DNA of 64,000 nucleotides from Protoeuglena noctilucae. Its lineage: Eukaryota. Shown here in pieces: positions 16,786-56,432 of this stretch. The stretch lies in NCBI GenBank assembly GCA_958009085.1, contig OY253669.1, positions 1,674,001-1,738,000 of the forward strand, read 5' to 3'. The position numbers and the translations under genes are program-made. Within the stretch, counting starts at the first letter, position 1; every line of letters begins with the position of its first letter. The notes under the pieces are model-generated. The model did no database searches and was not told the origin of the DNA. It worked only from the letters and a program-made list of their open reading frames with translations.

Positions 16786-16985
16786 NNNNNNNNNNNNNNN
16801 NNNNNNNNNNNNNNNNNNNNNNNNNNNNNNNNNNNNNNNNNNNNNNNNNNNNNNNNNNNNNNNNNNNNNNNNNNNNNNNNNNNNNNNNNNNNNNNNNNNN
16901 NNNNNNNNNNNNNNNNNNNNNNNNNNNNNNNNNNNNNNNNNNNNNNNNNNNNNNNNNNNNNNNNNNNNNNNNNNNNNNNNNNNNN
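16786..16985. other. Assembly gap (200 N)
   Basis: Run of N. Confidence 1.
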
Positions 16986-35129: not shown

Positions 35130-35326
35130 CTGGACGAAAATTCGGGCGCAGCGGGTCGCTGGACGGCTGGCCCGATCTCGGCACAGTGAATGATTTCCTT
35201 CCCCCAGCAACAAAGAGTGCGCTGGGTCGAGGCGAGCCCGAGGCGGACGCAGGGGCGCCGAAAAGTGCCAGTCAGACAGACCGCGACGTGGGGCGGCGAG
35301 GGTGCAGGGCAAGGGCCCCCGCTGCG

Positions 35327-36517
35327 ATGGGTACGCCCCCCATTCGTCGGGCGTCACGATCGCTATTGCGCTTTCGACGATCGCCTGCGCGCCGCTTCCC
35401 TCGTTCTGGCCACCGCTCCTGCGCATCGCACTGCGGGGGGGAGGGGAGTGAAGAATGAGGGTCTGTACGACTGGAGTGCACACCAAGCGTGCAGGATGTG
35501 TGGCAGCGGCTGCACGGCGCCCCCCACAAGCCGCACGGTAATCTCCGGCATGCAGCGGATGCGCCGTTCACCGGTTTGGCCACCGCACGAGACGACCGGG
35601 TTAAACGGTCGTTCAATTATTCTTGATGCAGTCATCCCTCGCTCTCCTCTGCACAGGGAACGCGGCCACGCGACGGGGATGGTGGCTGTGGCGCTTGTGG
35701 CCCTCGTCTATCTGGCGCCCGGGGAGGCCATGGCGGCGTAGTGAGTGGGCCGTTGCTGCCGATGTCGTGCGGTCGTTCAACGCCTTGCCCGGGGCACCGT
35801 GTGGAAAGCCTGGCGTGGCCCTCCTCACGCACAGCTCACCCCAAACGTGTGTTGGCCTGCGTGACCTGGGGGAGGACGATGCCGAGTGCAGGGCGCGCAT
35901 CCTTCGAGAAGACTTCAGCTCCGGCGCCAACGCAAAGGACTTCAAGGGTTTCTCCGCGGGGTGCGCGCCTCATATGCAGCAGCGCTGTGGGCGTGGGCCG
36001 CTCATCCGCAAGCCCTAGGCGATGGAGGCCCCGTCCCGGTCCGCCCGTGCAGACAGACGCAGTATGGCGTGCCAGTGGCGGAGATGGGCGACGCATACGT
36101 GGTGGAGACGCTAGAACTTGGGCGCAAAATCCTTCGGTACGGGGAGCTTGACCCGTACAGCAAGGAGCGCATCGATTTGATCAAGCAGATCAAGGGGGAC
36201 ATGAACCAATGGGTGGGGAAGTACGCACGGGGCGGGAGCGCGCGCAAGGAGAGCGCACGCAAGGTCTACATTGTCATCGACGCCCTCCAAGGACACCTGG
36301 TCCAGGTATGAAGCTGGGAGCGGGACATCATTGAGCCGGTTGTCAGTGCCCTGCCGAGCACGCACGCCCTCGCAGCACGTGCGCCAATGACAGTTGACCG
36401 CACTGCGAGATGGCGCCGCGCCTGCAGAACGGCCTGGCGCCCCTGCCCAAGCCCAAGTTCCAGAAGCTCGCTGTGGATTTGCAAGAGGCTTTCGACCTGC
36501 TCAGCCAGAGCCGGTAG
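35327..36517 (+). CDS. Psb27-family photosystem II assembly protein; start uncertain
   Basis: YVVETLEL...DMNQWVGKYAR...VYIVIDALQGHLVQ|NGLAPLPKPK..L..DLQEAFDLLSQSR* matches the Psb27 four-helix pattern. Confidence 0.8.
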
Positions 36518-36860
36518 GCCTAGTGCCTGCACCGCTGGCCTGCCCCGCCGACTCCCGGGAGGGGTTCCTTCGCTGGCGCAGGGCCTTGAGGATCCGGATC
36601 CGTCGCTCAGCGAGGTCCCTCTCGCATGCATTCGGGTCGTCTGGCCCCGGGATGGCGACTCCGCCCCACCTGTGATGACATGGCACTCGGATGAATGAAA
36701 ATTGACCGCGAATCGTGACCCACGAAAACTGGCACTGACGCCAGTGCCCGGCCACCTCTAGGGCCGACGTCGGAGCCTGGGGACGGCAAATCCACGCTTC
36801 GTTGATTGGAATAGAGCTGCTCGCCACTTCATCTCGTGGTCTCTGAGAACGACTGGCGAG

Positions 36861-38226
36861 ATGTCGTGCCGGGCACTCCAGGCGCCGAGTGCGTCGGCGC
36901 TGAGCGTGGTGGGGCCTCCCCGCCGCTCGAGGGCTGCGCCGCAGAGCCAGGGGTCGTTTAGAGCTGTGGTGGCGCGTGGGTTCGACGAGGGATCGGTAAC
37001 GAGGCTCACCTCGGTTGACCTGGGAGGGGGCCCGGCCGGGAAGGCCGAGCGCGCACCTAGCGTCGTCGAGACGGTGCAGGATGTCCCATTGGAATCTGAG
37101 GTGACTTTTCAAGCTCGCGGAAGCCCTGAGAGCGATCACGGTCGCCGGTGGACGCGACGATTATCCACTTGCCCAGCCCTCCCCGCCAGAGCGGCCCCTG
37201 GGTCCTTCCCAGCCGGGCCACGCATGATCTCCGGGGAGCATGTGTTTCGAAAGTCGGCGCTGGCACTTCCATTCGCAGCTCGGTATCGACTATGCGCCGC
37301 TCAAGGAGCTCTTGGCGAAGGGGGAGTTCGAGAAGGCCGACGACTTCACTCGCGCGGTCCTCATTACCATGGTCAGTCTCGGCGGAGAGGGGTTCGCGAT
37401 GTGCGCACGCTAGCAGGCCGCTTCGGCCCTCGCTGCCGCAGGAGTGCTTTGCGTGGCGCCGTCATGCCGATGCCAAGCTCTGGCCCGCAGGCGGACAAGT
37501 CCGCGGGGCTCGGGGCGGCTAAGCGGGGTTACGTCTACTTCACGGAGGTCAAGTCCATCCCCGTGGCGGATCTCCGTACGGTAGATGAGCTGTGGAAGAC
37601 TTACAGGTGCGTGGGGGTACCGCGAAGGGTGGCCCTGCCTGGGCCTGGGCTCCAGGGCGGGCCGAGTTCGATGCGGCTCTACCTCCGCCCTGCTCGCCTT
37701 GCGCCGCAGCGGGGGCAAGTTCGGGTACAGCGTGCAGAAGGGGGTGTGGCTGGCCAACCGCCGCAACTGGCAAAAGTTCTTCAAGGCCATCGACTGGGTC
37801 GTGGGGGAGGACAACAACTACCGGCAGTGGCCCACGGAGTTCAAGTACACGGTGGACGCCAAGAGGGGGCACCTGCCGTTGACGGCGGCCCTCCGTGGCA
37901 CGCAGCTCCACCAGTCCATCATGGAGCACCCCGCTTTCGAGGCCAAAAAGCCCACGGTGAGACGGCTTGGCGCAGTCAGACTCGCCACGGGTGGGGGCTG
38001 GCACCAGGGGTCTTGGAGCCCCACAAGCTCAGGGGCAGGTGGGTCGTGCGTTGCCGATTGGGCGTCTTCCCCGGGCATGAACACTCACGGTGGAGCAGAG
38101 CTGCTCCTGTGTCAGCTAGACTTGCTGACTCACTGCTCACGATTTCCTTGCTGGATATCTCGTAGAGCTACACGCAAAGTGCCTGAGTTGTTGCTCTCCG
38201 ATTGGTGTCCGCAGCTCTCGTCCTGA
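36861..38226 (+). CDS. GUN4: Tetrapyrrole-binding protein GUN4 (Mg-chelatase activator), 5 exons
   Basis: VPLESE|LGIDYAPLKELL..GEFEKADDFTR...KRGYVYFTEVKSIPVADLRTVDELWKTY|SGGKFGYSVQK...GHLPLTAALRGTQL..IMEHPAF. Confidence 0.96.
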
Positions 38227-38336: not shown

Positions 38337-40899
38337 GCGCGCTGCCTTTGGCTGTCGACACTAGGCACCTTGAACCACCGGCAGTGGCACTGCCCTAGGG
38401 TCTAGTGGACATCTAGCGCCAGGAACAGACCGCTACGTCAGGTGTCATGCAAGTGCTATGGTGGCTCCGGTGCCATGCTCTCTCGTCTGCTGGCTGTGCG
38501 TCAGGCAGCCAGCCTCCTGCCGCCGGCCAGGGCGTTGATCTGCCCAACGTTGCCCCGGCCCCCCAGCGCCTGCGGACAAACAGGGAGCCAGGCTCAGATG
38601 CGCAAGGCGCGCCATGAAGGGGCTGTCGGCGGCACGCTCGCGAGCCCCAGTCGCCTGATTGATGAGGTTGTTCCCGGACGCCCCGCCAGCGAGCGCGTTG
38701 ATCTGGCCGACCGCCCCGGAACCGGCCCCATTGTTGCCCACGGCCTGGGAGCCACGGCGTTGGAGATGGCGGGTCAGGTCACGGCGCCGCGGTGCCAGGA
38801 AGCCGAGCAGCCCTGCGCATGGCTCAGGGCGCACAGCAGCAGGCGGGCGGGCACTGGAGAGGGTGCCGAGTCGCTGCGACCGCACCTGGTTGATGAGGTT
38901 GTTGCCGCCGCCGGTGCCCGTGCCCGTCTTCTTGGGGTCGGTGCTGCCGGAGCCGCCACCCTGCTGTGCGTTGGTCTGGGCAACGGGTGCGCCGCTCGAC
39001 CCGCCAGAGCCGCTCCCGGAGCCGCTGCCCGACCCCACTCCCGCGCCGCGCACGACCTGCATTACGTGAGCGCGGTGCTGGCTGTCTTGTGACCCTGGCC
39101 CAGACGCCCGCGCGGTTGTCTGTGCCGGCACCCACACACGACGCGCTGGCTCAGCGTGGCACCTGGTTGATGAGGTTGTTGCCACCAGCCCCAGCGCCCG
39201 TCTTCTTGGGGTCGGTGGTGCCGGTCCCGCCACCCGCCAGCGCGTTGATCTGCCCCACGGCTCCCAGCCCAAACCCATTGCCCACGGCCTGCGAAACGAA
39301 GCTCTGGATCCCGCCTTCAGCATGCATGCCATGCACGGGGTCAGACAGGGGCAACTCCGTGGTCTCCACTGTGTGAAGCCACGGCACTCGCCCGCCTCGA
39401 CCCATGACATGGCATGCTGGCCGCGGTCGCATGTTGCTGCTGGGGGCGGCGACGCTGGCTCAGCGCGGCACCTGGTTGATGAGGTTGTTGCCACCAGCCC
39501 CGGCGCCCGTCTTCTTGGGGTCGGTGGTGCCGTTCCCGCCCGCCAGCGCGTTGATCTGCCCGATGGGTGCGCCGAACAGGCCGCCCACGACCTGCACCGC
39601 ACGAACGGCCAGCGGGGCCTCATGCAGCATGCGATGCCGCTGCCGGCGCCAGAGCTCATGCGCCGAGAGCAGCCTCGACGTACCTGGTTGATGAGGTTGT
39701 TGCCACCAGCACCATTTGGTGCCGGGGCCGGGGGCACCTTCGGAGTCGGAGAGCTCTTGGGCGTGGGCGAGCTCTTGGGCGTGGGCGAGCTCTTGGGCGT
39801 GGGCGAGCTCTTGGGCGTGGGCGAGCTCTTGGGCGTGGGACCCTGCGCCAGCCGCCGGCTCCTCACGGCCTGCGAGGGGCACGTTACATCACATCCCTGA
39901 GGATCCAGGCTCCCGGAGAGTAAGGGATGGTTGCTCCCGCAGTCGAGGTGTACAGCCCTGGGGGCTTTGTGCATCAGCCATGCATGGAAAGGTCGCAGGC
40001 ACAGCGCCGGGCCCCAGCAGCACCGGCATGCACGGTGCATCCCGCCGCAGCTGCTCCGCGTCACCTGCTCCCCGAGGTCGACCTCAATGTCCGGGAAGGC
40101 ACCGGAGACCGCCGATAGCTGCCGAGGCTGCAGGGCCTGCGGGGCATGACCACGGAAACTCGGGGTATGGATCCAGGCCAGGATGCGAGGCCAGCGGCTC
40201 ACCGCAGCTCCCTAGCCCGCTTGAAGTGTGCGTGGAGGGTGCCGGGCCTCGGCATGGGCATCGATGCACCGGCGGACCGCACAGAAGCCATACACTCACC
40301 TGATCATGCGGGAGGATGTTTGCTTGGGCTGCGGGCACGGGGGAGAGGGGAGGGCATGTCGATGGCAGAATGTGCTTTGCACACCTCGTGGAATGCGGGG
40401 CCGTGCTGGAGGACTCACCGGCCGCCCGCGATGCGCTGACCGCGAGCAGCAGCAGGGCTGCCACAGTGCAGATGGCCTTCTGCATGTCCGCGTCGCGACG
40501 TGGGATGCGGAGGGACCGTGTGTGCGGAAATGATGTCACCAGTGCACACTTAAGCTCATGGCAGCTATGACGTCACTGCACACGCAGCGGCAGCGCTGCC
40601 ATGTGGAGGTAGCATGGCGCAGCCAACCATGGCTCGCTGCAGCGACGGCAGGCCGCGCCGGGGCCGAGCTGCGGGTCAACGCATCGGGACGTTATCAAGA
40701 GGCGCGACGGGCACGGTGGCTCTCGCATGCCGGCGTGGGAGGAGTCGGACGAAGGTGCCGCTGGCGCCATCTCCCGGCAGTCTTCCGCGCCGCGCATGCG
40801 ACACAGAAACGGAGGTCGCCTTGGCGATCTGCTCGAGATGCTCAGTCGCTATGGTTGGCGGTGGCTCCGGGGGCCGCTTGGGCGGGCCGAGCCGTGCAC
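38337..40899. repeat. Left arm of a 2563-bp inverted duplication (partner 51862-54424)
   Basis: Reverse complement matches 51862-54424 (coordinate sum 92761); ORF translations are mirror images; about 3 mismatches seen. Confidence 0.95.
38501..40485 (-). CDS. Secreted QINALAG/NNLINQ-repeat protein, copy A (9 exons; inverted copy of C)
   Basis: Mirror of 52276-54260; signal peptide MQKAICTVAALLLLAVSASRAA. Confidence 0.8.
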
Positions 40900-41096
40900 T
40901 TGCTGGTCAGGTCGTGGCAGCAGGTCCAGCAGCAACGGGCCTTACGGGCGCAGTGATGGCATCACTGGTGGCTTAGCTATTATTAAGCCGTTAGGGCTGC
41001 GAGTACCGGGCTGAGCACCGCGCCTGCTCCATTGCCGGAGCCAGCGCTGCATTCAAACACTTCACTCGTCTGCGGCGCTGACAGCCATACAGAATC

Positions 41097-41884
41097 CTAT
41101 TCTCCCCGGACCGAATCGCGCCCCAGCGCCTCGTCAATCACGCGCTCCAGCGCGCCACACAAGGCATCAACGCGCTGGATGACGGCTCGCCTGGCTTCCC
41201 TGGCGCTGCCCTGCAGGCCCTCCATGGCATCCATCTCAAGAACCTTGCGCTCCAGCATCTCCCGGGCCTCACGCGCCCGCTGCAGGAAGGGCGGCCGGGG
41301 GCCGGGAGGCTCCGCCGCTATCGAGACAGGCTCCGGCCCCGGCGCCCTCGCCTCCTCGACCATCGCCTCGACCTCGCGCCCCCAGCGATCGACGGATGAC
41401 CGAATTTCTTCGATGCGCTCCTCGGCGTTCCTCGGCGCGGGCGCTGCGCCAGGGGTCGGGTCGGCGTCCGAAGGCCCCGCCAGGGCCAGCAGCTTCTGCC
41501 CGCTGCGAACCCCCGAGGTCGCCAGCGGAGCTTGAGGATCACGCACACGGCCCCGAAAGATGACCTGCACACGGTCCTGCGATGGTCCACGCGACCGAAA
41601 AGCTTGCAATGCGCCCAGCGGCCACGCTGCGCTCCCTGACGCCGCGCTGCGCCTCACGCTGGGCACGCCCGCTGCTTGGGAGAGCTTCTCCGTGACATCG
41701 CGAAAGGTCCCCTCGATTGGCAGCTGCGGCAGGGCACGAACCGAGGGTCGTGGACGTGGCGTGCGATCCCGCGACAATTGCGAGCGCCGCATGTCCAGGG
41801 AAGACCAGGCGCGCAATAGAAAGCCCTCACCTGAAGGTCATAGCTCTTTCCCTCGAAGGAGACCTTGAGCTCCATCGTCGCCAT
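41097..41884 (-). CDS. BAG-family co-chaperone (ubiquitin-like + BAG domain), 3 exons
   Basis: UBL MELKVSFEGKSYDLQ|LPIEGTFRDVTEKLSQAAGVPS|DRVQVIFRGR...GVRSGQKLLAL; BAG EMLERKVLEMDAMEG....REARRAVIQRVDAL. Confidence 0.85.
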
Positions 41885-42434
41885 CCCGCCCCCTGCAACA
41901 GAGTGAGACTGCTGGAGTGATCGCCGGCGCTGACAGGCTGTACGAAGCCTGGGATCCCACCTCCGAACTCTGTGACTCCATATGACACTGCAACGACCAT
42001 CCAGTGCGCCCCTCGCGGCGGCCCAATCACCACTCGCAGCCTGGCCCATCCCTTGGCGCCCGCTCGTCCCGCCGGCACGCCACCGGCCTGTCCTCGTAGC
42101 CGCTTTACAAAGTCAACCTCGCGGTGGGCCGAAACTCGCAGGGCCTCGGGGCCTCTCGGAACGGCAGCACTCCACGCACTTCACCTAGCACGATGCACAC
42201 GGAGGGAGACAGCGCAGCGGCTATCTGTGGCGGCAGGGCCACTTCTCAAACCCAACCACGACGGACTAGACTTTTCATGGTCCACGTTCTCACTCCCAGA
42301 TGTTTTTTTTTGCCAGATTCAAGCGCGTGCAGCCCGAGCTTCTCATGCATTCAAAGACAAGGATGCAATCCTACTTGCCGTCCTCGCCAGCAACAGCAGC
42401 GCTTTCCAGCTGCGGACAAGAAAGGTGACGACTT

Positions 42435-44221
42435 TCAGCTCGCCCTGCAGCCTGCACCAGTCAACCATGCCCTGTACGGTCTTTGCCCCACCTTGGACGC
42501 CAGCTCGTCCGCATCCTTCCCAGCCTCCTTCTCCGACTCAGCAGCACCGGCCTCGCCATCCGCGCCCGCGGCTCCGCCCCCCAACAGCTCCCCGTTGGCC
42601 TGTGTATGGGGCCAGCCAGCAGCCGCTCCTCGCCCATCCAGGCATGCCCAAACCCGACCGACCTGCAGTGACACGCGCTTCAGCATTCAACCCTCCAACC
42701 CCTCACCTCAGCCGCCTTCTCAAAGGCCGTCTTGAACTCAGCTGCCTTCTCCTCGCTCCCAAACCGCACGCAGAACATCTCCGGCTTGAGCTCCCCCTCC
42801 GCAAAGTCTGCAGAGAAAGCGACTTCCTCTCGCAAGCCGACAACACGGCCGCTCCAGCCACACAGAGCCACACGCGGCGCCCTCTCCTCCACGAACCAAT
42901 CACCACACCAGCCCCGCCCTTCTCACCCATCGTGCGGTAAACCCACGCCTTGCTTGACCCCGCGTGCTCCTGCAGCTCGGTTTTGGGCATCACGATGTGG
43001 TTGGCTCGGATCTTGAACGTCTGCGGTCGACGGGCGGGGTGCAGTCGCGTCGCACGTGTGTTCTGGGCACGGGCGCTTCCTCACTATTGCCGCCCCTGCC
43101 CACCATCCCCCCACCACCCCTCGCCTTCTCCTGCCGCATGAGCAGCCGCGTCTTGCCGGACTCCCGATGCCGCAGCAGCTTGACCGGCCCCACCCCACGC
43201 TCCTTCCACTCGTTGCTGTCCAGGTCAAAACGGTACAGCTTGCACTTCAGCTCTAGCATGAGCTCCTCGTCCTCCTCGCCCGTCTGCGACACGCGAACGG
43301 CCAGAACGCAGAGACATTGGACTTCCGCAACAGCACTCAGCTTCCCTCGCCGTCCCTGACCTCCCGACGGGCAGCGTCACCTTGGTCTCCACCTCCTGCA
43401 GCTGCACCACGGGCTTGAACTCCGCTTTGCACTCCTCCTCCGCATTCTCCTCGCCTTCGCCGTGGTCCTCCCCCTCGCCCGCGTCGTGCTCGGGCGCCTG
43501 CGGATGCGGCGCACACTACGTGGCGCGCACGGGCGCTTAGGGCGCGGCCCGCGTGGTCGCCGCAGAGATGCGCATTGGCTGCATGTTGAGATCGTTGTAA
43601 AGAGCACGGAGAGCGATCCGTGCGCGGCGAACGGGGCGTGTCGGCGGCGGAGGGCCCTGCGTCGCGACGATGGCGACCGGCTCACCTTGGGCGCCGCGCC
43701 GGCCGCGCCGCCCGATGCCGCGAACGCCGCAAAGCCCGACCCGGACCCCAGTGAGAATCCCTGCCCAAAAACGAAGGCGGGCGCCTGCGGAGGGAGGCGC
43801 CAGGGAGGCATCGGCGCCCCGCACTCGGCATCTCTGGGCGTTCGCGACCTGCCGGGGCCCGAGCCGGCCCGCAACGTGAGGCTTGGCGAGGACCTCCGCC
43901 ATCGTCCCGTCGCGACGCTCTGATTCAGGGGCACCTCAACGAGCGAGGCGCACGGGTCCGAGGGCGTGCGCGGGGATCTCGGGCACAGTGGCTGCATCGT
44001 CAGCATTCCACGCGCGTATCTTGCATCGAGACGCGAGGCCACGAGGCCGGAGATCCAAGGCGGGCGGGCGAAATTCTCCCCAGAGGCGCCCCCCGGTCCC
44101 CGGGACCGCCAGCGACAGCGCCGGGCCGTGCCGCGTCGTGCGCCAGTTCTTTCGACAAACAAGCGATCTGCTCGCGCCACGTCATCACCTTCTCAGCCGG
44201 CTTCTCCTCCCCGCCCGACAT
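42435..44221 (-). CDS. RANBP1: Ran-binding protein 1, spliced
   Basis: FKPVVQLQEVETK|TGEEDEE...KLYRFD...EWKERGVGPVKLL...RLLMRQEK|TFKIRANH...AWVY..|DFAEGELKPEMFCVRFGS. Confidence 0.95.
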
Positions 44222-44623
44222 GATGCTCCTGGAGGACAAGCAGCAGAGATTCCAAGCGGAAACGATGCTCCTTGCACTCAAGGCAGCGCAGAGTGACGCT
44301 GGGCGGTGGGCGCGCCGACAATCTGGCCACAAGGGGCTCTCTCGGTTCAAGTTGCGCTGGCACATGTGCGGCGTGTAAGACCGGGGGGAGCCGTCAGGCG
44401 ACTCCTGCGCGCCAACAGGACGGCAATCGCTCGGGCGAAAGGCGACGCGGTCCCCTCGACGGCGCCTCCGGGACTCCAGCGGCGCGGTGGCCACGCCGTG
44501 TCGTTAAGCTGCAACTCCGTCCCTCCCAGCCCGGCCGAACGACTCAAATCAGTCGCTGAGGTCCACTGCCGTGACGCGGCTGGGTACGGAGGCCTCGCGC
44601 CCCCGTGAGCGACCTGCATCGCA

Positions 44624-46932
44624 ATGTCGTACCGAGAGGTTCGAAGTGAGCGTGGCGAAGGGGCGACCGTGGACACCTTGACGTTCTGACGCAGCTTATC
44701 CGTCCTTTGCGAGACTGATGGGTTCGTGACTCGCGCCACGTGGGTGGGATGATCTTTGTCGGTTTTCGCTCCCTTCCTGCCGCTCCCGTGCCCCGTGCGG
44801 GTCTCCTCGGGCCGCATGCGCATGGCTACTCTTCTTCTAACACAAACCCATTTATCTCCGGGCCTGGGGGCGCTTGGCTGGCGCCCCTGTTGGAACGAGG
44901 AGCTTGTGCATGTGCGCAGGCTTCTGCGAGATCATGCGGACGCTGGGGTACCCGCGAATCATCTCTATGGAAAATTTCCGAGAGCCCAACTTCCCCTTGG
45001 TGGCCGATTGTCTCGAGTGGCTCGTTCGGAGGTACGACCAGGTAATTGCGGCGTCCCGGCACTTGCCGAGCGTTCACGCACTCGCTGAGCGATGGGAAGC
45101 CCATAACACGAGGCAGGCGCGTGCCGGCAGCTTCCATGGGCGCAGCGGACATCTCTCTTTCGCAGGGGGTAGTGATTGCCGCCGACATTGACACGGCGTC
45201 CGACCGCGTGCTTTTTCTCCAAACCATCGACCGGACCATGTTCGCCAAGGCCCGCATCAAGCTCAACCTGCGGAAACTTTACACGGGTGCGCAACTCGGC
45301 TCTGCGCGCCACCTCCCCGCGCCGCTGGCCCCCTGCCCAGCTGATGACGCATGCGTCGCCTGACCCCTGCAGCCGACGGCCACGCGGTGCGCGAGCTGCT
45401 CAAGGTCGCGAGACTCCTCTTCGACGCCAACCGCTCCGCGGACACTGCCGACCCGGCGGGAGACGTGGACGGGGGGGTGGTGTCCTCGGCCTTGCCGGCC
45501 GACGCTGCGCAAATGCGCACGGTGCGTGGGCGGGCGTCGGCGCGCGCGTAGTCGCACTTTGCGCCGCAAGCTGTGGCGCGGCACGCCCCTCGCGACGCCT
45601 GACGGCCCCCCGTCCGCCTGTGCCGCGCAGGTGCGGGAGCTGGCGGCCGAGGTACAGGCGGTGGGCAACCTGCTGCAGGAGGCCCTGCTCCGGGAGGGGG
45701 AGATGAGCCGCGCGCGGGCTCGCGCGTTTGCCACAGACACGCAGGTGGTGCAGGATCAGCTGCGCGAGGCGGTGCAGGGGGTGCGTGGGTCGGCGCACAA
45801 CATGGAGGCGCAGGCGGATCAGATGGACAAGGAGCGGAGGGCGTTGGAGGGCAAGATGCGCAAGCGCGCGGACGAACTGGAGCGACAGAGGCAGAGGTGA
45901 GACTCCTGTCCGAAACAGGCGGGTAGTGCGGCCGACGGGGGCGGTCTTGCGCCGGTGTCGCTGCGCGGCCGTGGCCTGGGGCAGCGCCGGAGGCCTCGCC
46001 GCATCGCGCCCTCTCCTCCTCTCCCCAGACTGGTGGCAGTGCAGGGCGTGCGCCCCGCCTACATGGCCGAGTACGAGCGCCTGATGGAGCAGCTGCAGGC
46101 GCTGTTTGCCGAGTATCTGGAGCGGCACCGCAACCTGGAGTATCTGCAGCGGCGGCTGGAGAGCCTGGAGGCCAAGGAGCAGCGGGAGGCGGAGGAGGAC
46201 GAGAGGAGGATGCGGAAGGCACAGGTGAGAGGAGGGATGCACAAGGCGGGATTGTTGTGGTGCCTTGTCGCATGGCAGTGTATGGGGGTGCAAGGGTGGG
46301 CCGGGCGGCACGGCGGTTGAGCGCCGGCGCAGTAGAAGGACGCGTTGCGGGTTGTCGGGCATTCCTGGCCACGCATCCTCGAAAGTCTCTCTCGCCCCCG
46401 TCGCAGGCCAAGATGCAGCGGGAGATGGAGGGCGTGCTTGGCGGCAACCATGAGGTGGACGACTCGGGGCTGGACTCCATGGAGTCAGGGGACATTGAGT
46501 TCAGCAACGACGGAGATTCGGACGGGCGAGGGGCGGGGAGGGACACGCTCAAGCGGCCCACGCAGCCGGACAGGCGAGGGACTGGGGCGTGGGGCTCAGT
46601 GTCCCAGCCACTGCTGCTGCTCGCGCTGCAGGTCCGCCGCTGCTCTGTCTCTTCTGATGCCAAGGCTGGGCCTGAGGCGCCGCGACGCCACCCCGGCCGC
46701 TCGCTGCAGGGGTGCGCGCCGGCAGGCGACGGGTGGTGCGCCCCCACCGGGTGCAGGCGGGGGGCGCCAGGTGGGCAACCTGTCCCCCGGAGCTGCGGCG
46801 GACGACGACGACTCGCTGTCGGGATCGGGGCTGTCCGACGACGACGGATCGGCCAGCGGCGGGGTGTCCTTCGGGAGCGAGGTGGAGGCAACAGGCATGG
46901 GCAAGGTGGGGCATGAGAGCTCGTGGGATTAA
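44624..46932 (+). CDS. CLUAP1: Clusterin-associated protein 1 / IFT38 (IFT-B), spliced
   Basis: [46 protein letters not shown]...[21 protein letters not shown]...[12 protein letters not shown]...[11 protein letters not shown]. Confidence 0.95.
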
Positions 46933-47364
46933 AATGCTTGTCGATGCCCGCGGCGAGCTTGCTGTTACGCCACCTCCGCCTCGCCGCCCCAGGACCGCCT
47001 CAGGGCCAATGCCGGGGGCCTGCTGGGCATGGATGAGGACGGGGACCTCCTTGGCGGAGACGGCGACGCGGGCATCTACGAGGATACCGAGTCCAGTGGG
47101 GACTTTTAGCCATCTTTGCGCACTGCTTGTAATTTCAGCTAGGAGCGCGGCGAGAGTTTTAAAATCTGGCATTGCCACTTGCTGTTTCACCTGGTGCGGC
47201 CTCCTCAGGCGCGGTCGCGGTGTCAGGCGATCGCATAGATTCCTCCGTGAGCTCGTCGGCGCCCCGCTGTGGCAGGCGCAAGCCGCAGCGGAGGCTGCAG
47301 TGGGACCCATGCCAGCCCACTGCACGCCGTGCCTGCGCTCCCATGCAAGCGACGTCACCGTGGG

Positions 47365-47392
47365 AGTGACGTCATGCGATTTTGGGGCTTAA
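47365..47392 (+). promoter_or_regulatory. AGTGACGTCAT-N11-GCTTAA motif upstream of copy B (also at 52184-52211, 54874-54901 and 40550-40577 on minus)
   Basis: Palindromic TGACGTCA (bZIP CRE/C-box type) 80-90 bp before the ATG of all four family members, with the same spacing to GCTTAA. Confidence 0.6.
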
Positions 47393-47464
47393 AAGCCAGG
47401 TGAGGGGCCTCTCCCAGGCAGAGTTCGGGCCGCCCCCGGCTTTGGAGGCCCTACCTGCCCGTGC

Positions 47465-50400
47465 ATGGGAGCTCGTCGCCGCGGCGTCGCTGCGGCGGCG
47501 TTGATTATCGCCGCGGGCCTCTTCTCGCAGACTCTGGCCTGGGCGCCGTCCTGCCTCGACCATGCGGCCGGCCACAAGTGCCTGTACCAGGTGCAGAGAG
47601 TGCATGCAGCTTGCTTTGTGGCAGATGGCTGCGCGCGCGCTCCGTAAGCCACGGCGAGATTCGGGTCCGCATCCCAACACTGATGCCAAAGTTGGCAACA
47701 TTGCCGCAAACCAAACAATAATTACAACAATAATTCCGCTTTGCAGGCCGGGGGCATCGTGACGGATGTCCATGCGCTGGCGGGATCGACCTTGACCAGC
47801 CAGGCCATCGTCGGCCGGCGGCTGGCAGATGACAGAACCCCCAGCCCGCCTCCGCCGAGCCCTCCGGGACCGCCGGGCCCCACCGGTCCCTCTGGTCCCC
47901 CCGGTCCGCCTGGTCCGCCTGGTCCGACGAGCCCCCCGGGTCCGCCAGGCCCCACTGGTCCCTCCGGTCCCCCCGGTCCGTCGGGTCCGCCGAGCCCCCC
48001 GGGTCCGCCGGGACCCAGCGGTCCTGAAGGGCCCCCTGGTCCGTCTGGTCCGCCGAGCCCCCCGGGTCCGCCGGGACCCAGCGGTCCTGAAGGGCCCCCT
48101 GGTCCGTCTGGTCCGCCGAGCCCCCCAGGTCCACCGGGCCCCAGCGGTCCTCCCGGCCCCAGCGGCCCCTCCGGTCCTGAAGGCCCCCCAGGTCCGTCGG
48201 GTCCGCCGAGCCCCCCGGGTCCGCCGGGACCCAGCGGTCCTGAAGGGCCCCCTGGTCCGTCTGGTCCGCCGAGCCCCCCAGGTCCGCCGGGCCCCAGCGG
48301 TCCTCCTGGCCCCAGCGGGCCCTCCGGTCCCGAGGGCCCCCCTGGTCCGTCGGGTCCGCCGAGCCCCCCGGGTCCGCCGGGACCCAGCGGTCCTGAAGGG
48401 CCCCCTGGTCCGTCTGGTCCGCCGAGCCCCCCAGGTCCGCCGGGCCCCAGCGGTCCTGAAGGGCCCCCTGGTCCGTCTGGTCCGCCGAGCCCCCCAGGTC
48501 CGCCGGGCCCCAGCGGTCCTCCTGGCCCCAGCGGCCCCTCCGGTCCCGAGGGCCCCCCTGGTCCATCTGGTCCGCCGAGCCCCCCGGGTCCGCCGGGCCC
48601 CAGCGGTCCTCCCGGCCCCAGTGGGCCCTCCGGTCCCGAGGGCCCCCCTGGTCCATCGGGTCCGCCGAGCCCCCCGGGTCCTCCAGGCCCCAGCGGCCCG
48701 TCCGGTCCCCCTGGCCCCTCTGGTCCCTCCGGTCCCGAGGGCCCCCCTGGTCCATCTGGTCCGCCGAGCCCCCCGGGTCCTCCTGGCCCCAGCGGCCCGT
48801 CCGGTCCCCCTGGCCCCAGCGGTCCCTCTGGTCCTCCGGGCCCCAGCGGCCCGTCTGGCCCCGAGGGCCCCCCTGGTCCGTCGGGTCCGCCAAGCCCCCC
48901 AGGTCCGCCGGGCCCCAGTGGCCCTTCTGGCCCCCCGGGCCCTACTGGCCCTTCTGGTCCTCCAGGCCCTGGTGGCCCCTCCGGTCCCGGAGGGCCCCCT
49001 GGTCCGTCTGGTCCGCCGAGCCCCCCTGGCCCGTCGGGTCCCTCCGGCCCACCGAGCCCGCCGGGTCCGCCTGGTCCGTCGGGTCCTTCCGGGCCCCCTG
49101 GTCCGCCTGGTTCCCCGAGCCCCCCAGGTCCCCCGGGTCCACCTGGCCCGGCCGGTCCCCCGAGCCCTCCGGGTCCGCCGGGTCCTGGCGGCCCCTCCGG
49201 TCCCCCGGGCCCCAGTGGTCCCTCCGGTCCCCCGGGTCCCAGCGGCCCCTCCGGTCCTCCCGGCCCCGGCGGCCCCACGGGCCCGTCGGGTCCGCCGAGC
49301 CCCCCGGGTCCCCCGGGCCCTCCTGGTCCGTCTGGTCCGCCTAGCCCCCCGGGCCCTCCCGGCCCCCCTGGCCCGTCGGGTCCTTCTGGTCCCCCGAGCC
49401 CGCCGGGTCCCCCGGGCCCCTCCGGTCCCGAAGGGCCCCCTGGTCCGTCGGGTCCTCCGAGCCCCCCAGGTCCCCCGGGTCCACCTGGCCCGGCCGGCCC
49501 CCCGAGCCCCCCGGGTCCGCCGGGTCCTGGCGGCCCCTCCGGTCCCCCGGGCCCCAGTGGTCCCTCCGGTTCCCCGGGTCCCAGCGGTCCCTCCGGTCCT
49601 CCTGGCCCTGGCGGCCCCACGGGCCCGTCGGGTCCGCCGAGCCCCCCCGGCCCTCCAGGCCCCACGGGCCCCACGGGCCCTACCGGTCCTCCGGGCCCCA
49701 CTGGTCCGTCGAGCCCTCCGGGTCCTCCGGGCCCCACGGGTCCGACGGGCCCCACAGGTCCCTCCGGCCCACCGAGTCCCCCCGGCCCCTCCGGTCCCCC
49801 GGGTCCCAACGGTCCTCCGGGCCCGTCCGGTCCCAACGGCCCGCCCGGTCCGTCGGGCCCGACTGGCCCCAACGGTCCCCCTGGCCCCACGGGCCCCACG
49901 GGCCCGACGAGTCCCCCGGGTCCCACGGGCCCCCCCGGCCCCACTGGTCCGTCTGGTCCGACCGGGCCCTCTGGGCCTAACGGTCCCCCGGGTCCCTCTG
50001 GTCCCAACGGCCCCCCAGGTCCCAACGGGCCCTCGGGTCCCTCGGGCCCACCCGGCCCCAACGGTCCCAACGGTCCCAACGGTCCCCCCGGCCCCACGGG
50101 CCCCTCGGGTCCTACGGGCCCCAGCGGTCCGTCGGGTCCCTCGGGTCCCAACGGCCCTCCGGGTCCCTCGGGTCCCAACGGCCCCGCCGGCCCCCCCGGC
50201 CCCACGGGTCCGACGGGCCCCGCGAGCCCCCCTGGTCCTCCGGGTCCCCCGGGTCCCCCTGGCCCTCCCGGTCCGACCCCTCCGCCCCCTCCGCCGACCC
50301 CGACTCCCAAGACCCCCCCGGGCCCCAAGAGCCCCCCCAAGAACCCGCCCGCCCCTGCCCCTGGCGGCAACAACCTCATCAACCAGGTACGGATGCGGAG

Positions 50401-51640
50401 GCTCTGGATGTCGCCGAGCTTCATCGCGCCTTGACTGCCGCGGTGCACCTGTGCTGACACACCGCACGCTGCCGACGCAGGCTGTGGGTGGCGGCGGCGC
50501 TGGCGGCGCTGCTGTCGGTCAGATCAACGCGCTGGCGGGTGGCGGGACCGGCACCACCGACCCCAAGAAGACGGGCGCCGGGGCTGGCGGCAACAACCCC
50601 ATCAACCAGGTGAGGGTGCAGGGCGCGCCGCTGTATTTGCACCTGGCAGCCTGGCTGGCTCGCGGCCCTGTCAGAGGCACGCGGCATCTTCTCGCGTTGC
50701 TCTCAGGCCGTGGGAGCGGGATCGTCTGGCTCTGGCACGGGCTCCGGCATCGTCGCGCAGATCAACGCGCTGACGGGTGGCGGGGCCGGTGGCGGCAACA
50801 ACCTGATCAACCAGGTGCGGTGACGTCTACAGGGGGCCTGCTGGGTACAGGGGGCCTGCTGGGCAAAGGATGTGCTGCAGCTGTGCATGCGTGGCGCGCT
50901 GTGCGACTTGATAATGCGCTGTGCCGGAGTCTGCGCCGCTGCGATCGTCAATTGGAGGCCCCGGCTGTCCTCGCCCATGCAGGCCGTGCCGGGCTCGGGC
51001 TCGGGCACTGGCTCGGGCACTGGCTCTGGCTCTGGCTCTGGCTCGGGCACTGGCTCGGGCACTGGCTCTGGCTCTGGCTCTGGATCTGGCTCGGGCTCGG
51101 GCTCGGGCTCGGGCTCTGGCTCTGGCTCCGGCTCTGGCGGCGCTCCTGTCGGTCAGATCAACGCGCTGGCGGGCGGCTCCGGCACCACCGACCCCAAGAA
51201 GACGGGCGCCGGGGCTGGCGGCAACAACCTCATCAACCAGGTGCGCGCGCAAGGCGTGGCGGTGCGTGGATGCTGGATGCTGGATGCTGCCGCTGGCCGC
51301 GTGCCTTGCTGCAGAGCGCTGGTAGCGTGGCTAGAGGTGTCGAGGAGCATCGACCGCGTCGCTATGCTTGTGTGGTGCAGGCCGTGGGCGGCTCGGGCGG
51401 CGGAGCTGTCGGGCAGATCAACGCGCTGGCCGGCGGCGGCGGCGGCGGCAACAAGCTCATCAACCAGGTGCGTGCGGCGTGACGGGTGCTGACGGGCCGC
51501 GATGCTGTCCGTTGCGGCCCCGTGGTGGTGACCCGTCGCGTGCCAAGCGCCCGCAGGCTTTGGGCGGTGGCTTCGGGCTGGGTGCCATCGGCCAGATCAA
51601 CGCGCTGGCAGGCTTGGGTGGCCGGCGGCTGGCCGCGTAG
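47465..51640 (+). CDS. Secreted collagen-like QINALAG/NNLINQ-repeat protein, copy B (7 exons: 47465-47590, 47747-50386, 50481-50609, 50707-50814, 50983-51240, 51381-51467, 51557-51640)
   Basis: Signal peptide [30 protein letters not shown] site; (Gly-Pro-Y)n domain; phase-0 module exons with GT-AG boundaries; ends GGRRLAA*. Confidence 0.85.
47867..50278 (+). repeat. 9-bp-periodic coding repeat: 268 triplets of (G/S)-P-Y
   Basis: 2412 nt; [18 protein letters not shown] triplets with periodic SPP. Confidence 0.95.
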
Positions 51641-51861
51641 CAAGCTGGTCTCCTCTAGAGTGCAACTAATCTTCTAGCTAGCACTTGATATTAGAGAGTG
51701 CACTGTCCTCGACTTAGAGAGTCTTGGAATGAGTTAGTACACTAGCCACTGGCTCGCCTTCTGCCTCGCCCTTTCTACTGCTGCTCGTCACTACGACTGT
51801 TAACGCATGAGACGCGCGCTAGCCTGTGCAAGGGCGACGTGACGCATGTGGGCCCCCGCAG

Positions 51862-54424
51862 GTGCACGGCTCGGCCCGCCCAGGCGGCCCCCGGAGCCAC
51901 CGCCAACCATAGCGACTGAGCATCTCGAGCAGATCGCCAAGGCGACCTCCGTTTCTGTGTCGCATGCGCGGCGCGGAAGACTGCCGGGAGATGGCGCCAG
52001 CGGCACCTTCGTCCGACTCCTCCCACGCCGGCATGCGAGAGCCACCGTGCCCGTCGCGCCTCTTGATAACGTCCCGATGCGTTGACCCGCAGCTCGGCCC
52101 CGGCGCGGCCTGCCGTCGCTGCAGCGAGCCATGGTTGGCTGCGCCATGCTACCTCCACATGGCAGCGCTGCCGCTGCGTGTGCAGTGACGTCATAGCTGC
52201 CATGAGCTTAAGTGTGCACTGGTGACATCATTTCCGCACACACGGTCCCTCCGCATCCCACGTCGCGACGCGGACATGCAGAAGGCCATCTGCACTGTGG
52301 CAGCCCTGCTGCTGCTCGCGGTCAGCGCATCGCGGGCGGCCGGTGAGTCCTCCAGCACGGCCCCGCATTCCACGAGGTGTGCAAAGCACATTCTGCCATC
52401 GACATGCCCTCCCCTCTCCCCCGTGCCCGCAGCCCAAGCAAACATCCTCCCGCATGATCAGGTGAGTGTATGGCTTCTGTGCGGTCCGCCGGTGCATCGA
52501 TGCCCATGCCGAGGCCCGGCACCCTCCACGCACACTTCAAGCGGGCTAGGGAGCTGCGGTGAGCCGCTGGCCTCGCATCCTGGCCTGGATCCATACCCCG
52601 AGTTTCCGTGGTCATGCCCCGCAGGCCCTGCAGCCTCGGCAGCTATCGGCGGTCTCCGGTGCCTTCCCGGACATTGAGGTCGACCTCGGGGAGCAGGTGA
52701 CGCGGAGCAGCTGCGGCGGGATGCACCGTGCATGCCGGTGCTGCTGGGGCCCGGCGCTGTGCCTGCGACCTTTCCATGCATGGCTGATGCACAAAGCCCC
52801 CAGGGCTGTACACCTCGACTGCGGGAGCAACCATCCCTTACTCTCCGGGAGCCTGGATCCTCAGGGATGTGATGTAACGTGCCCCTCGCAGGCCGTGAGG
52901 AGCCGGCGGCTGGCGCAGGGTCCCACGCCCAAGAGCTCGCCCACGCCCAAGAGCTCGCCCACGCCCAAGAGCTCGCCCACGCCCAAGAGCTCGCCCACGC
53001 CCAAGAGCTCTCCGACTCCGAAGGTGCCCCCGGCCCCGGCACCAAATGGTGCTGGTGGCAACAACCTCATCAACCAGGTACGTCGAGGCTGCTCTCGGCG
53101 CATGAGCTCTGGCGCCGGCAGCGGCATCGCATGCTGCATGAGGCCCCGCTGGCCGTTCGTGCGGTGCAGGTCGTGGGCGGCCTGTTCGGCGCACCCATCG
53201 GGCAGATCAACGCGCTGGCGGGCGGGAACGGCACCACCGACCCCAAGAAGACGGGCGCCGGGGCTGGTGGCAACAACCTCATCAACCAGGTGCCGCGCTG
53301 AGCCAGCGTCGCCGCCCCCAGCAGCAACATGCGACCGCGGCCAGCATGCCATGTCATGGGTCGAGGCGGGCGAGTGCCGTGGCTTCACACAGTGGAGACC
53401 ACGGAGTTGCCCCTGTCTGACCCCGTGCATGGCATGCATGCTGAAGGCGGGATCCAGAGCTTCGTTTCGCAGGCCGTGGGCAATGGGTTTGGGCTGGGAG
53501 CCGTGGGGCAGATCAACGCGCTGGCGGGTGGCGGGACCGGCACCACCGACCCCAAGAAGACGGGCGCTGGGGCTGGTGGCAACAACCTCATCAACCAGGT
53601 GCCACGCTGAGCCAGCGCGTCGTGTGTGGGTGCCGGCACAGACAACCGCGCGGGCGTCTGGGCCAGGGTCACAAGACAGCCAGCACCGCGCTCACGTAAT
53701 GCAGGTCGTGCGCGGCGCGGGAGTGGGGTCGGGCAGCGGCTCCGGGAGCGGCTCTGGCGGGTCGAGCGGCGCACCCGTTGCCCAGACCAACGCACAGCAG
53801 GGTGGCGGCTCCGGCAGCACCGACCCCAAGAAGACGGGCACGGGCACCGGCGGCGGCAACAACCTCATCAACCAGGTGCGGTCGCAGCGACTCGGCACCC
53901 TCTCCAGTGCCCGCCCGCCTGCTGCTGTGCGCCCTGAGCCATGCGCAGGGCTGCTCGGCTTCTTGGCACCGCGGCGCCGTGACCTGACCCGCCATCTCCA
54001 ACGCCGTGGCTCCCAGGCCGTGGGCAACAATGGGGCCGGTTCCGGGGCGGTCGGCCAGATCAACGCGCTCGCTGGCGGGGCGTCCGGGAACAACCTCATC
54101 AATCAGGCGACTGGGGCTCGCGAGCGTGCCGCCGACAGCCCCTTCATGGCGCGCCTTGCGCATCTGAGCCTGGTTCCCTGTTTGTCCGCAGGCGCTGGGG
54201 GGCCGGGGCAACGTTGGGCAGATCAACGCCCTGGCCGGCGGCAGGAGGCTGGCTGCCTGACGCACAGCCAGCAGACGAGAGAGCATGGCACCGGAGCCAC
54301 CATAGCACTTGCATGACACCTGACGTAGCGGTCTGTTCCTGGCGCTAGATGTCCACTAGACCCTAGGGCAGTGCCACTGCCGGTGGTTCAAGGTGCCTAG
54401 TGTCGACAGCCAAAGGCAGCGCGC
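51862..54424. repeat. Right arm of the 2563-bp inverted duplication (partner 38337-40899)
   Basis: See left arm. Confidence 0.95.
52276..54260 (+). CDS. Secreted QINALAG/NNLINQ-repeat protein, copy C (9 exons) with (PTPKSS)5
   Basis: MQKAICTVAALLLLAVSASRAA|AQANILPHDQ|ALQPRQ...GEQ|AVRSRRLAQG(PTPKSS)5..NNLINQ| four module exons |[22 protein letters not shown]. Confidence 0.8.
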
Positions 54425-54973
54425 TACTGCGCTTTCCGACACCCCCCGGGCACCGCAACCTGCTACTTGTCCGCCGCCCTTGATTCCCATCCCGGGAAAG
54501 CATCGCGGACTCCTGCTGCTTTCGCTCACAGCACGTAACCGGGCTCTGGCATTTCGTCCCGCCCTCTTCCTCCTCTCCACCGTCTGGTCCGTCGGGGCGT
54601 CCATCGACGGGCCCTCCCGCTCCGCCTTCGATCTCAAGTTCCGCCAGCGGCGGAGTTCCTGGACGAGGCCTCCACGGACATCCCCGGCCTGCCCCACCGA
54701 AAAGCTTTCGCGAGCGGGGCTTTCCTTACTGCCATAGGGTTGCGATGGATCCTCCGTGAGCTCGTCGGCGCCCCGCTGTGGCAGGCGCAAGCCGCAGCGG
54801 AGGCTGCAGTGGGACCCATGCCAGCCCACTGCACGCCGTGCCTGCGCTCCCATGCAGGCGACGTCACCGTGGGAGTGACGTCATGCGATTTTGGGGCTTA
54901 AAAGCCAGGTGAGGGGCCTCTCCCAGGCATAGTTCGGGCCGTCCCCGGCTGTGAACAGAGCCTTTTGCTTTGC

Positions 54974-56022
54974 ATGGGGGCTCGTCGCCGCGGCGTCGCG
55001 ACGGCGGCGGTGATCGTCGCAGCGGGTCTCTTCTCGCAGGCCCTGGCCTGGGCGCCGTCCTGCCTCGACTACGCGGCTGGCCTGTACGACGGAGGGTGCG
55101 GGTATCTCGGCTCTGTGGACCCAAGTGTCCTGTATGCCGACTGCCCGTCTCTGCGTGGGCCGCTTGGCGCCTGCGGGTACACGGGCGGCACTAACGCTGG
55201 ATCCGGGGGCACTGGCACGGGCAGCGGCGGCAGCGGCCAGACGAATGCGCAGTCGGGCTCTCCTTCGCCATCGCCCACTTCCGCCCCTACGCCTACCTCT
55301 GCGCCCCTGGCACCTCCTGTGGCGCAGATCAATGCTCTCGCAGGCTCTGGCGCCGGCCTTGGCGGCAACAACCTGATTAATCAGGTGAGGGAGTCTGCAC
55401 ATGGCCGGCGCGCCCCCCGCACAAGCGTAGCACGTGTTGGGCCCTGCCGCATGCAGAGCACCTGGGCTTCCCCTCTCGCCTCCTCAGGCAGTGACTGGGT
55501 CCGGCAGCGGCGGCAGCGGGTCGGGCGTCGTCGCGCAGATCAATGCGCTGGCGGGCGGCTCCGGCACCACCGACCCCAAGAAGACGGGCGCCGGGGCTGG
55601 CGGCAACAACCTCATCAACCAGGTGCGCGCGCAAGGCGTGGCGGTGCGTGGATGCTGGATGCTGGATGCTGCCGCTGGCCGCGTGCCTTGCTGCAGAGCG
55701 CTGGTAGCGTGGCTAGAGGTGTCGAGGAGCATCGACCGCGTCGCTATGCTTGTGTGGTGCAGGCCGTGGGCGGCTCGGGCGGCGGAGCTGTCGGGCAGAT
55801 CAACGCGCTGGCCGGCGGCGGCGGCGGCGGCAACAAGCTCATCAACCAGGTGCGTGCGGCGTGACGGGTGCTGACGGGCCGCGATGCTGTCCGTTGCGGC
55901 CCCGTGGTGGTGACCCGTCGCGTGCCAAGCGCCCGCAGGCTTTGGGCGGTGGCTTCGGGCTGGGTGCCATCGGCCAGATCAACGCGCTGGCAGGCTTGGG
56001 TGGCCGGCGGCTGGCGGCCTAG
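54974..56022 (+). CDS. Secreted QINALAG/NNLINQ-repeat protein, copy D (4 exons: 54974-55384, 55488-55622, 55763-55849, 55939-56022)
   Basis: Signal peptide paralogous to B; small four-Cys segment; SP/TP linker; module exons; ends GGRRLAA*. Confidence 0.8.
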
Positions 56023-56432
56023 CTCTAGAACACGGTGTGCTAGTTGCTAGCTAAAATGTTAGACTGCATGTAGTCTTAGCTGGTATTGAAATGGTCTAGT
56101 CAAATACCTTCCGCAACCCAATCCCGACCAGCCCACCTGCTCCCCACCCGATGTCTCCCCGGGCCGGCTGGTTAGTGTTCACTGGGTTGTCCCCAAAGAC
56201 TGGGGCAGTCTTGGCCCCGGGGAAACTGACGGACTGACGGGCGAAGTGGGTAGGGTACAAGGCTGTAGGTCAGGGTAACAAGACTGTAAACAGTCACAAT
56301 ACCAGACAGTTGGACGTCAGGCGTACTTCCTAAGTGCCCTCGTGTCAACGGTTTTAGAGTTGCGGTGACGGGGGTGCTCCATCGGTAAAACTCAGCTTGC
56401 CTGCAAGCCTCTGAGCTCGCCTGAGCTCGCCC

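Follow-up and report, generated by a model that had tools for sequence, protein, structure and literature searches.

Four neighbouring genes at positions 38501-56022 of a 64,000-nucleotide stretch of Protoeuglena noctilucae DNA (contig OY253669.1, positions 1,674,001 to 1,738,000 of the forward strand; hereafter the window) encode a family of repeat proteins. These nuclear genes, A to D, are real, are transcribed, and are spliced at the INQ/AV boundaries at which their repeat modules join. We favour, with moderate confidence, the reading that their products are lineage-restricted modular proteins, likely passing through the secretory pathway to the extracellular matrix, with an architecture like that of the chimeric algal hydroxyproline-rich glycoproteins (HRGPs) and a new Gly-rich end domain of sticky motifs. 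In this reading we infer secretion, the conformation of the rods, self-association and cross-linking. Almost no sequence-level knowledge exists of green-algal surface proteins beyond those of Chlamydomonas and Volvox, and the cluster provides a concrete, transcribed set of candidates for the surface of a marine chlorophyte.

To locate the repeats, the window was scanned in six frames for the patterns Q[IT]NA[LQ][ATQ]G, N[NK][LP]INQ, TDPKKTG and GRRLAA followed by a stop codon. The first occurs 19 times (five each in A, B and C, four in D) and the second 18 times (five each in A, B and C, three in D), with nine copies of TDPKKTG and four of the terminal motif. All of them are confined to 38501-56022, on the strands given by an earlier, sequence-only reading of this DNA (minus for A, plus for B, C and D). 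None of the three repeat motifs appeared in 100 first-order Markov shuffles of the window, based on its dinucleotide frequencies, and the clustering is far above chance. Every run of INQ codons is directly followed by GT, or in one case GC, and the module exons open after a cAG acceptor with AV, VV or AL. Exon lengths (129, 108, 258 and 87 nucleotides in B; 120, 126, 171 and 90 in C; 135 and 87 in D) are all multiples of three, in phase 0-0, and the models, once joined, run in an open frame from the ATG to the stop codon, giving 1143 residues for B, 309 for C (the same as A) and 238 for D. The reading frames are intact in all four genes, over 10 distinct module exons, and in an alignment of 12 module exons the Q, N, A and G inside the QINALAG core are invariant. 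The scan and the closed in-frame models agree with the exon plan proposed earlier, in which module exons start after cAG, end with INQ in phase 0 and lead to a terminal exon ending in GGRRLAA. With one module per exon in phase 0-0, the array can grow, shrink or shuffle without loss of frame, and the cluster offers a clean case of such frame-neutral evolution.

Splicing at the INQ/AV boundaries had been predicted from the letters of the DNA, and RNA contigs now confirm it. Contigs from three RNA runs and one DNA run (X5) were compared with 50300-56100, where 16 introns were predicted. Seven of these were matched by joints in RNA contigs from runs X2 and X3, with ends of the GT..AG or GC..AG type. 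In gene B the joints fall on introns 50387-50480, 50610-50706 and 50815-50982, the last seen as a loose end of an RNA contig that was later placed exactly at 50984. Intron 51468-51556 was also joined, and may belong to B or to D, being indistinguishable from its near-identical twin in D at 55850-55938. Gene C contributed introns 53599-53704 and 54107-54191, the latter with GC..AG ends, and gene D intron 55385-55487, for which the joint was found in two runs. For the other predicted introns of 50300-56100, no joint was listed in the RNA contigs. None of the seven joints was present in the DNA run X5; X5 has joints of its own, which leap from one repeated module to another and lack GT..AG ends. 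The RNA runs that contain the gene stretch are marine metatranscriptomes, and in runs X9-X12 next to none of the words sampled from the stretch were found.

The sequence-only reading had described a family of four genes on one plan with a variable spacer. The motifs and the genes are present, and a four-gene family overstates their diversity: the distinct plans number two, one shared by A and C and the other by B and D. Genes A and C form an inverted duplication of 2,570 bp (38337-40906 against 54424-51855) with 99.8% identity, and none of the five differences between the arms is exonic. In the right arm, 51855-54424, gene C is flanked by 421 bp on its 5' side and 164 bp on its 3' side. In the DNA run, word depth is about 335-390 within the arm and about 135-160 in unique flanks, which fits two copies better than an assembly artefact. 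Gene D matches gene B with 91.6% identity in the 5' region and 99% over the last 494 bp, and D is in effect B without its long rod and two of its modules. The family probably has at least one additional member elsewhere in the genome. An X2 RNA contig runs 255 letters past the end of an NNLINQ exon (51241 or 55623) into sequence foreign to the window, where no match to this continuation was found with up to three mismatches; this suggests a paralogue or an alternative downstream exon located elsewhere. Loose ends of DNA-run contigs at 50516, 53522 and 53751 also exit the window. Mean pairwise identity among eight module exons (28 pairs) was 0.67, compared to 0.53 among the introns downstream of them and 0.51 among shuffled introns. 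Exon identity has thus been kept while the introns are at the level of shuffled sequence, which indicates that the modules are old duplicates whose coding sequence was held.

Gene B, on the plus strand, begins with a predicted exon 1 at 47465-47590, comprising the ATG, a signal-peptide-like N-terminus, a Cys-x8-Cys pair and a GTGCAG donor. Its exon 2 (47747-50386) contains a degenerate HALAG...GRRLA segment, one SPPPP and 268 G-P-X triplets. The module exons lie at 50481-50609, 50707-50814, 50983-51240 (with a long Gly-Ser/Thr run) and 51381-51467, and the terminal exon at 51557-51640 ends in GGRRLAA and a stop codon. In gene C (52276-54260, plus strand), a predicted signal-peptide-like exon 1 (52276-52342) and two small predicted exons (52433-52461 and 52625-52696) precede a spacer exon at 52892-53077, which reads SRRLAQ, five PTPKSS units and PTPKVPPAPAP and ends in NNLINQ. 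Module exons follow at 53170-53289, 53473-53598, 53705-53875 (with the variant QTNAQQ) and 54017-54106 (before the GC donor), and the terminal exon is 54192-54260. The three exons of C before 52892 are predictions: no RNA joint falls in this 5' part, and an X1 contig covering 52284-52752 is colinear with the genome. The predicted first intron of C, 52343-52432, is 90 nucleotides long, in frame and free of stop codons, and if it were coding it would supply a Cys-x8-Cys pair as in B. Gene A (38501-40485, minus strand) mirrors C within the left arm of the duplication, its copies of the C exons being the spacer exon 39684-39869, the module exons 39472-39591, 39163-39288, 38886-39056 and 38655-38744, and the terminal exon 38501-38569. 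Gene D, on the plus strand, has a long exon 1 (54974-55384) holding a signal-peptide-like start, four Cys residues, a Gly/Ser and Ser/Thr/Pro stretch and the first module; two module exons (55488-55622 and 55763-55849) and a terminal exon (55939-56022) follow.

The N-termini of B, C and D look like classical signal peptides, as had been claimed. A crude script that evaluates hydropathy and the residues at -3 and -1 found one to three basic residues, a mean hydropathy of 2.63-2.93 over a 10-residue window, and small residues at -3/-1 in AxA-type sites, for example ALA|W. In B and D the N-terminus is followed by Cys-x8-Cys or Cys-x10-Cys. Just before the rod, B has GRRLA and C has SRRLA, echoing the C-terminal GGRRLAA common to all members. 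The spacers themselves proved to be as first described, collagen-like in B, built on PTPKSS in A/C and rich in Ser, Thr and Pro in D. The rod of D has about 20 Ser/Thr/Pro residues, and that of A/C five exact PTPKSS units encoded by an 18-bp repeat (4.9 copies, 100% matches). The rod of B extends for about 800 residues, or 268 triplets in unbroken register, of which 241 carry Gly and 27 are S-P-P with Ser in the place of Gly. Pro occupies position 2 in 266 of the 268 triplets, the remaining two being GSP, and the Ser-for-Gly triplets are spaced 4-35 triplets apart, commonly every 7-15. Exon 2 of B matched the Pfam Collagen family PF01391 with an E-value of 8.6e-96 and 314.1 bits, where the cut-off is 27.2; this holds for B alone, not for A/C or D. 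Tandem repeats with periods of 9, 153, 216 and 342 were found in the same exon. Extensin-type HRGPs are marked by repeated Ser-Pro(3-5) motifs, hydroxyproline and O-glycans; B has one SPPPP and the 27 SPP triplets, and A/C and D have neither. A collagen-like rod of this length with a regular Gly-to-Ser pattern is among the features that give the cluster its interest.

The module domain contains 29-36% Gly and no Cys, Trp or Tyr, and it is net basic, with 5-10 Lys and Arg residues compared to 1-3 Asp and Glu. In the spliced product, VGQINALAG and NNLINQAVG alternate between Gly/Ser linkers up to the C-terminal GGRRLAA. Linkers that span a splice site are mostly 9-13 residues long, while the overall range is 8-57. 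Inside an exon, linkers that contain TDPKKTG measure about 20-22 residues, and those that lack it about 8-10.

The claim that the modules belong to no known family withstood a broad set of searches. A Pfam scan of eight exon translations at E<=1 gave no family for the modules, and no pherophorin-type, curlin, carbohydrate-binding or collagen trimerisation domain. A profile search of the PDB with the module gave no match at E<=10, and the ESM Atlas, queried with a single module and with the first exon of D, had no usable match. None of the four motif strings was found in the papers searched, and a literature search on Gly-X-Y collagen-like proteins in algae turned up nothing relevant. Searched with the module profile, a collection of 1.84 billion representative proteins yielded seven matches, four of which are the window's own unspliced open reading frame (ORF) fragments, so that the repeat module is essentially absent from that collection. 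One match, P0006, from two Logan contigs, is a credible relative with an hhalign probability of 95.7%. It has two clear modules with both motifs kept, and comes from another, apparently less GC-rich organism. In two of three sites a Val codon (GTN) stands directly after LINQ in P0006, consistent with a GT donor there. Two other matches were dismissed and are probably spurious. P0005 (ENA, 537 residues, with IAQLNALMGG repeats) had a profile E-value of 1.5e-5 and was rejected on an hhalign probability of 8.7%; it consists of seven units of about 60 residues, each ending in a PLIAQLNA-type motif and a Ser-rich tail. P0007, a bacterial repeat protein, was rejected on inspection. In word-indexed protein searches, the module profile retrieved from longer proteins the window's own read-through ORF alone, and P0006 as a query found only itself. 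Among JGI metagenome contigs, 212 pattern matches to the module profile included no confirmed relative, and neither did 67 matches among viral contigs. A degenerate DNA pattern for the two motifs was found in no metagenome contig and in no prokaryote genome contig.

How might such proteins function? The signal-peptide-like segment at the N-terminus would give access to the secretory pathway. The rod would then act as a stiff spacer, probably hydroxylated and glycosylated as in algal HRGPs, and the repeated motifs of Gln/Asn and hydrophobic residues could serve as multivalent stickers that tie the molecules together or to another component of the matrix. Cross-links might form at the conserved Gln and at the Lys-Lys of TDPKKTG, an idea that rests on reports of transglutaminase activity in Chlamydomonas wall assembly. 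One may go further and speculate that the NNLINQ-AVG... unit assembled by splicing is a new strand-turn-strand module with an Asn/Gln ladder, of a beta-solenoid or amyloid-like kind, which, carried on a B rod of about 230 nm and on the short rods of A/C and D, would build a new surface fibre or lattice; we consider this decidedly unlikely. If the modules self-assemble, they would represent a new motif for protein materials, and otherwise the cluster would still mark a lineage-specific matrix.

Several known systems resemble the family in part. The rods of pherophorins and GP1 are built on (SP)n and PPSPX motifs, and these proteins combine such rods with other domains. Like the present family, the volvocine HRGP chimeras (pherophorins, GP1 and agglutinins) have a signal peptide, a variable Pro-rich rod and a non-proline domain. 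They also share with it the green-algal origin, the clustered duplicated paralogues and a presumed role in the matrix; how green-algal matrix glycoproteins are built in general is reviewed in PMC10762512. By contrast, the rods described here are G-P-X or PTPKSS, the end domain is a new Gly-rich repeat, and neither a pherophorin domain nor another known end domain was detected in Pfam. Plant glycine-rich wall proteins, silk and elastin-like proteins likewise combine a signal peptide with Gly-rich repeats and hydrophobic motifs between flexible linkers, but there is no sequence similarity, and the motifs of the present family are Asn/Gln-rich instead of Ala or Val-Pro. Tropoelastin is a further likeness, with one module per exon and Lys-containing segments that alternate with hydrophobic ones. 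A looser likeness is that to curli subunits of the CsgA type, whose short repeats have conserved Gln/Asn and Gly and possibly a strand-turn-strand form. Unlike CsgA, however, the present family gave no curli match in Pfam at E<=1 and no predicted strand, is eukaryotic and spliced, and has linkers of 8-57 residues.

The same architecture would also fit a secreted adhesin or anchor, in which the module array binds a ligand (a polysaccharide, a scale, a theca or a mineral surface) and the rods project it. Multivalent short motifs in flexible linkers would suit a repetitive surface, a single module shows no autonomous fold, and a net basic domain would be in keeping with green-algal coverings that are rich in acidic sugars, as described in PMC10762512. 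No carbohydrate-binding or other binding family was matched in Pfam, and the data fit ligand binding and self-association alike; we consider this alternative unlikely. For gene B a true collagen could be envisaged instead, forming a triple helix of about 230 nm, with the QINALAG/NNLINQ domain providing trimerisation and register and with A/C and D as short rod-less partners or regulators. The 268 Pro-rich triplets, in uninterrupted frame and with Gly in 241, and the strong Pfam Collagen score are what B shares with the collagens of PF01391, and the V-x-x-I-x-x-L spacing of the motif might allow packing as a short trimer. On the other hand, Ser replaces Gly in 27 triplets and thereby creates PPSPP, a sequence typical of algal polyproline-II rods. 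The near-invariant Pro at position 2 is a further departure from collagens, no known trimerisation domain was found in Pfam, and A/C and D share the module domain without having a collagen part. We therefore regard a true collagen as improbable.

It could also be argued that the loci are fast-evolving and of low complexity, with no extracellular role, encoding cytosolic disordered proteins or giving rise to transcripts that are spliced and largely untranslated. A D RNA isoform without a start codon, the near absence of the family elsewhere and the low-confidence structure models would all be compatible with this. Yet the exons were conserved while the introns diverged to background, frames remained intact over the four genes and their 10 distinct module exons, both gene types have N-termini that resemble signal peptides, and the motifs were kept in a distant relative. 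This explanation thus appears very improbable.

A number of observations nevertheless weigh against an HRGP-like matrix protein. Secretion is predicted from N-termini judged by the crude script. One distant relative is too little for comparisons that could bear on function, and no wall-related gene was found among the neighbours recognisable by Pfam. The AlphaFold2 models cover one module and the first exon of D. A single module, modelled with a 12-row alignment, reached a predicted local distance difference test score (pLDDT) of 57.8 with no secondary structure. The model of D exon 1 had a pLDDT of 53.8 overall, with helices of moderate confidence spanning residues 28-66, and another at residues 7-20 on the hydrophobic signal segment, where the pLDDT is only about 50; its module part scored 41-55 and had no predicted secondary structure. 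These low-confidence models therefore show no folded assembly unit. A complex prediction for four copies of one module, in which the alignment was unused, scored 0.02 where the mark is 0.32, and speaks neither for nor against binding. The sequence-only reading had proposed an extracellular structural or self-assembling system loosely like functional amyloid or silk; it is supported in part, in that the genes are real and spliced and the module fits no recognised family. A secreted, structural or self-assembling role is putative, the low-confidence module model having no secondary structure and no curli-type or other amyloid family having matched in Pfam. On the RNA side, contigs of the RNA library X1 are colinear with the genome over at least four predicted introns, which may reflect DNA carry-over, pre-mRNA or intron retention. 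Finally, the sole assembled RNA form of D lacks the start of the protein. In this form (X2 record 13, with no differing letters over 612 nucleotides), 54729-54908 is joined to 55040 on the plus strand, and the extra GT..AG intron of 54909-55039 removes the ATG at 54974 and the hydrophobic core of the signal peptide, leaving no in-frame ATG upstream. The donor and acceptor sequences of this intron are also present in B, at 47401 and 47531. D may have two transcript types, a spliced form initiated upstream and a promoter-proximal coding form.

Upstream of the ATG, B and D both retain TGACGTCA (54876-54883 in D and 47367-47374 in B), and TTAAAAG is found at 54898-54904 in D and 47389-47395 in B, in each case 70 nucleotides 5' of the ATG. 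An upstream ORF of 27 codons lies at 54819-54902. Between C and D, a run of 22 T precedes 54372 in one X1 contig, and another covers 54403-54747, which suggests a polyadenylated minus-strand transcript; a minus-strand ORF at 54356-54880 is not protein-like.

The window has a G+C content of about 68% throughout, rising to 81% across the B repeat, and includes an assembly gap of 200 N at 16786-16985. Its genes are eukaryotic and split by introns. Pfam assigned the neighbours of the cluster to RETICULATA-like, Psb27, GUN4, a BAG-domain protein, Cluap1/IFT38, CofD-like, Urm1, a cold-shock domain, RRP36, TORTIFOLIA-like, adaptin, DUF72 and NAC. Taken together, these neighbours indicate a photosynthetic organism, and the IFT38 gene suggests that it is probably a flagellate. 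The best named relative of the RETICULATA-like ORF is from Pedinophyceae sp. YPF-701 (51% identity), and identities with proteins of Haematococcus, Chlorella, Gonium and Volvox are 44-49%. This ORF is thus closest to chlorophyte sequences, which makes the organism a chlorophyte green alga with no closely related species sequenced. Three adjacent chloroplast-related nuclear genes occupy 33698-38223, namely RETICULATA-like on the minus strand and Psb27 and GUN4 on the plus strand. GUN4 and gene A are convergent, with some 280 bp between the end of GUN4 and the stop codon of A.

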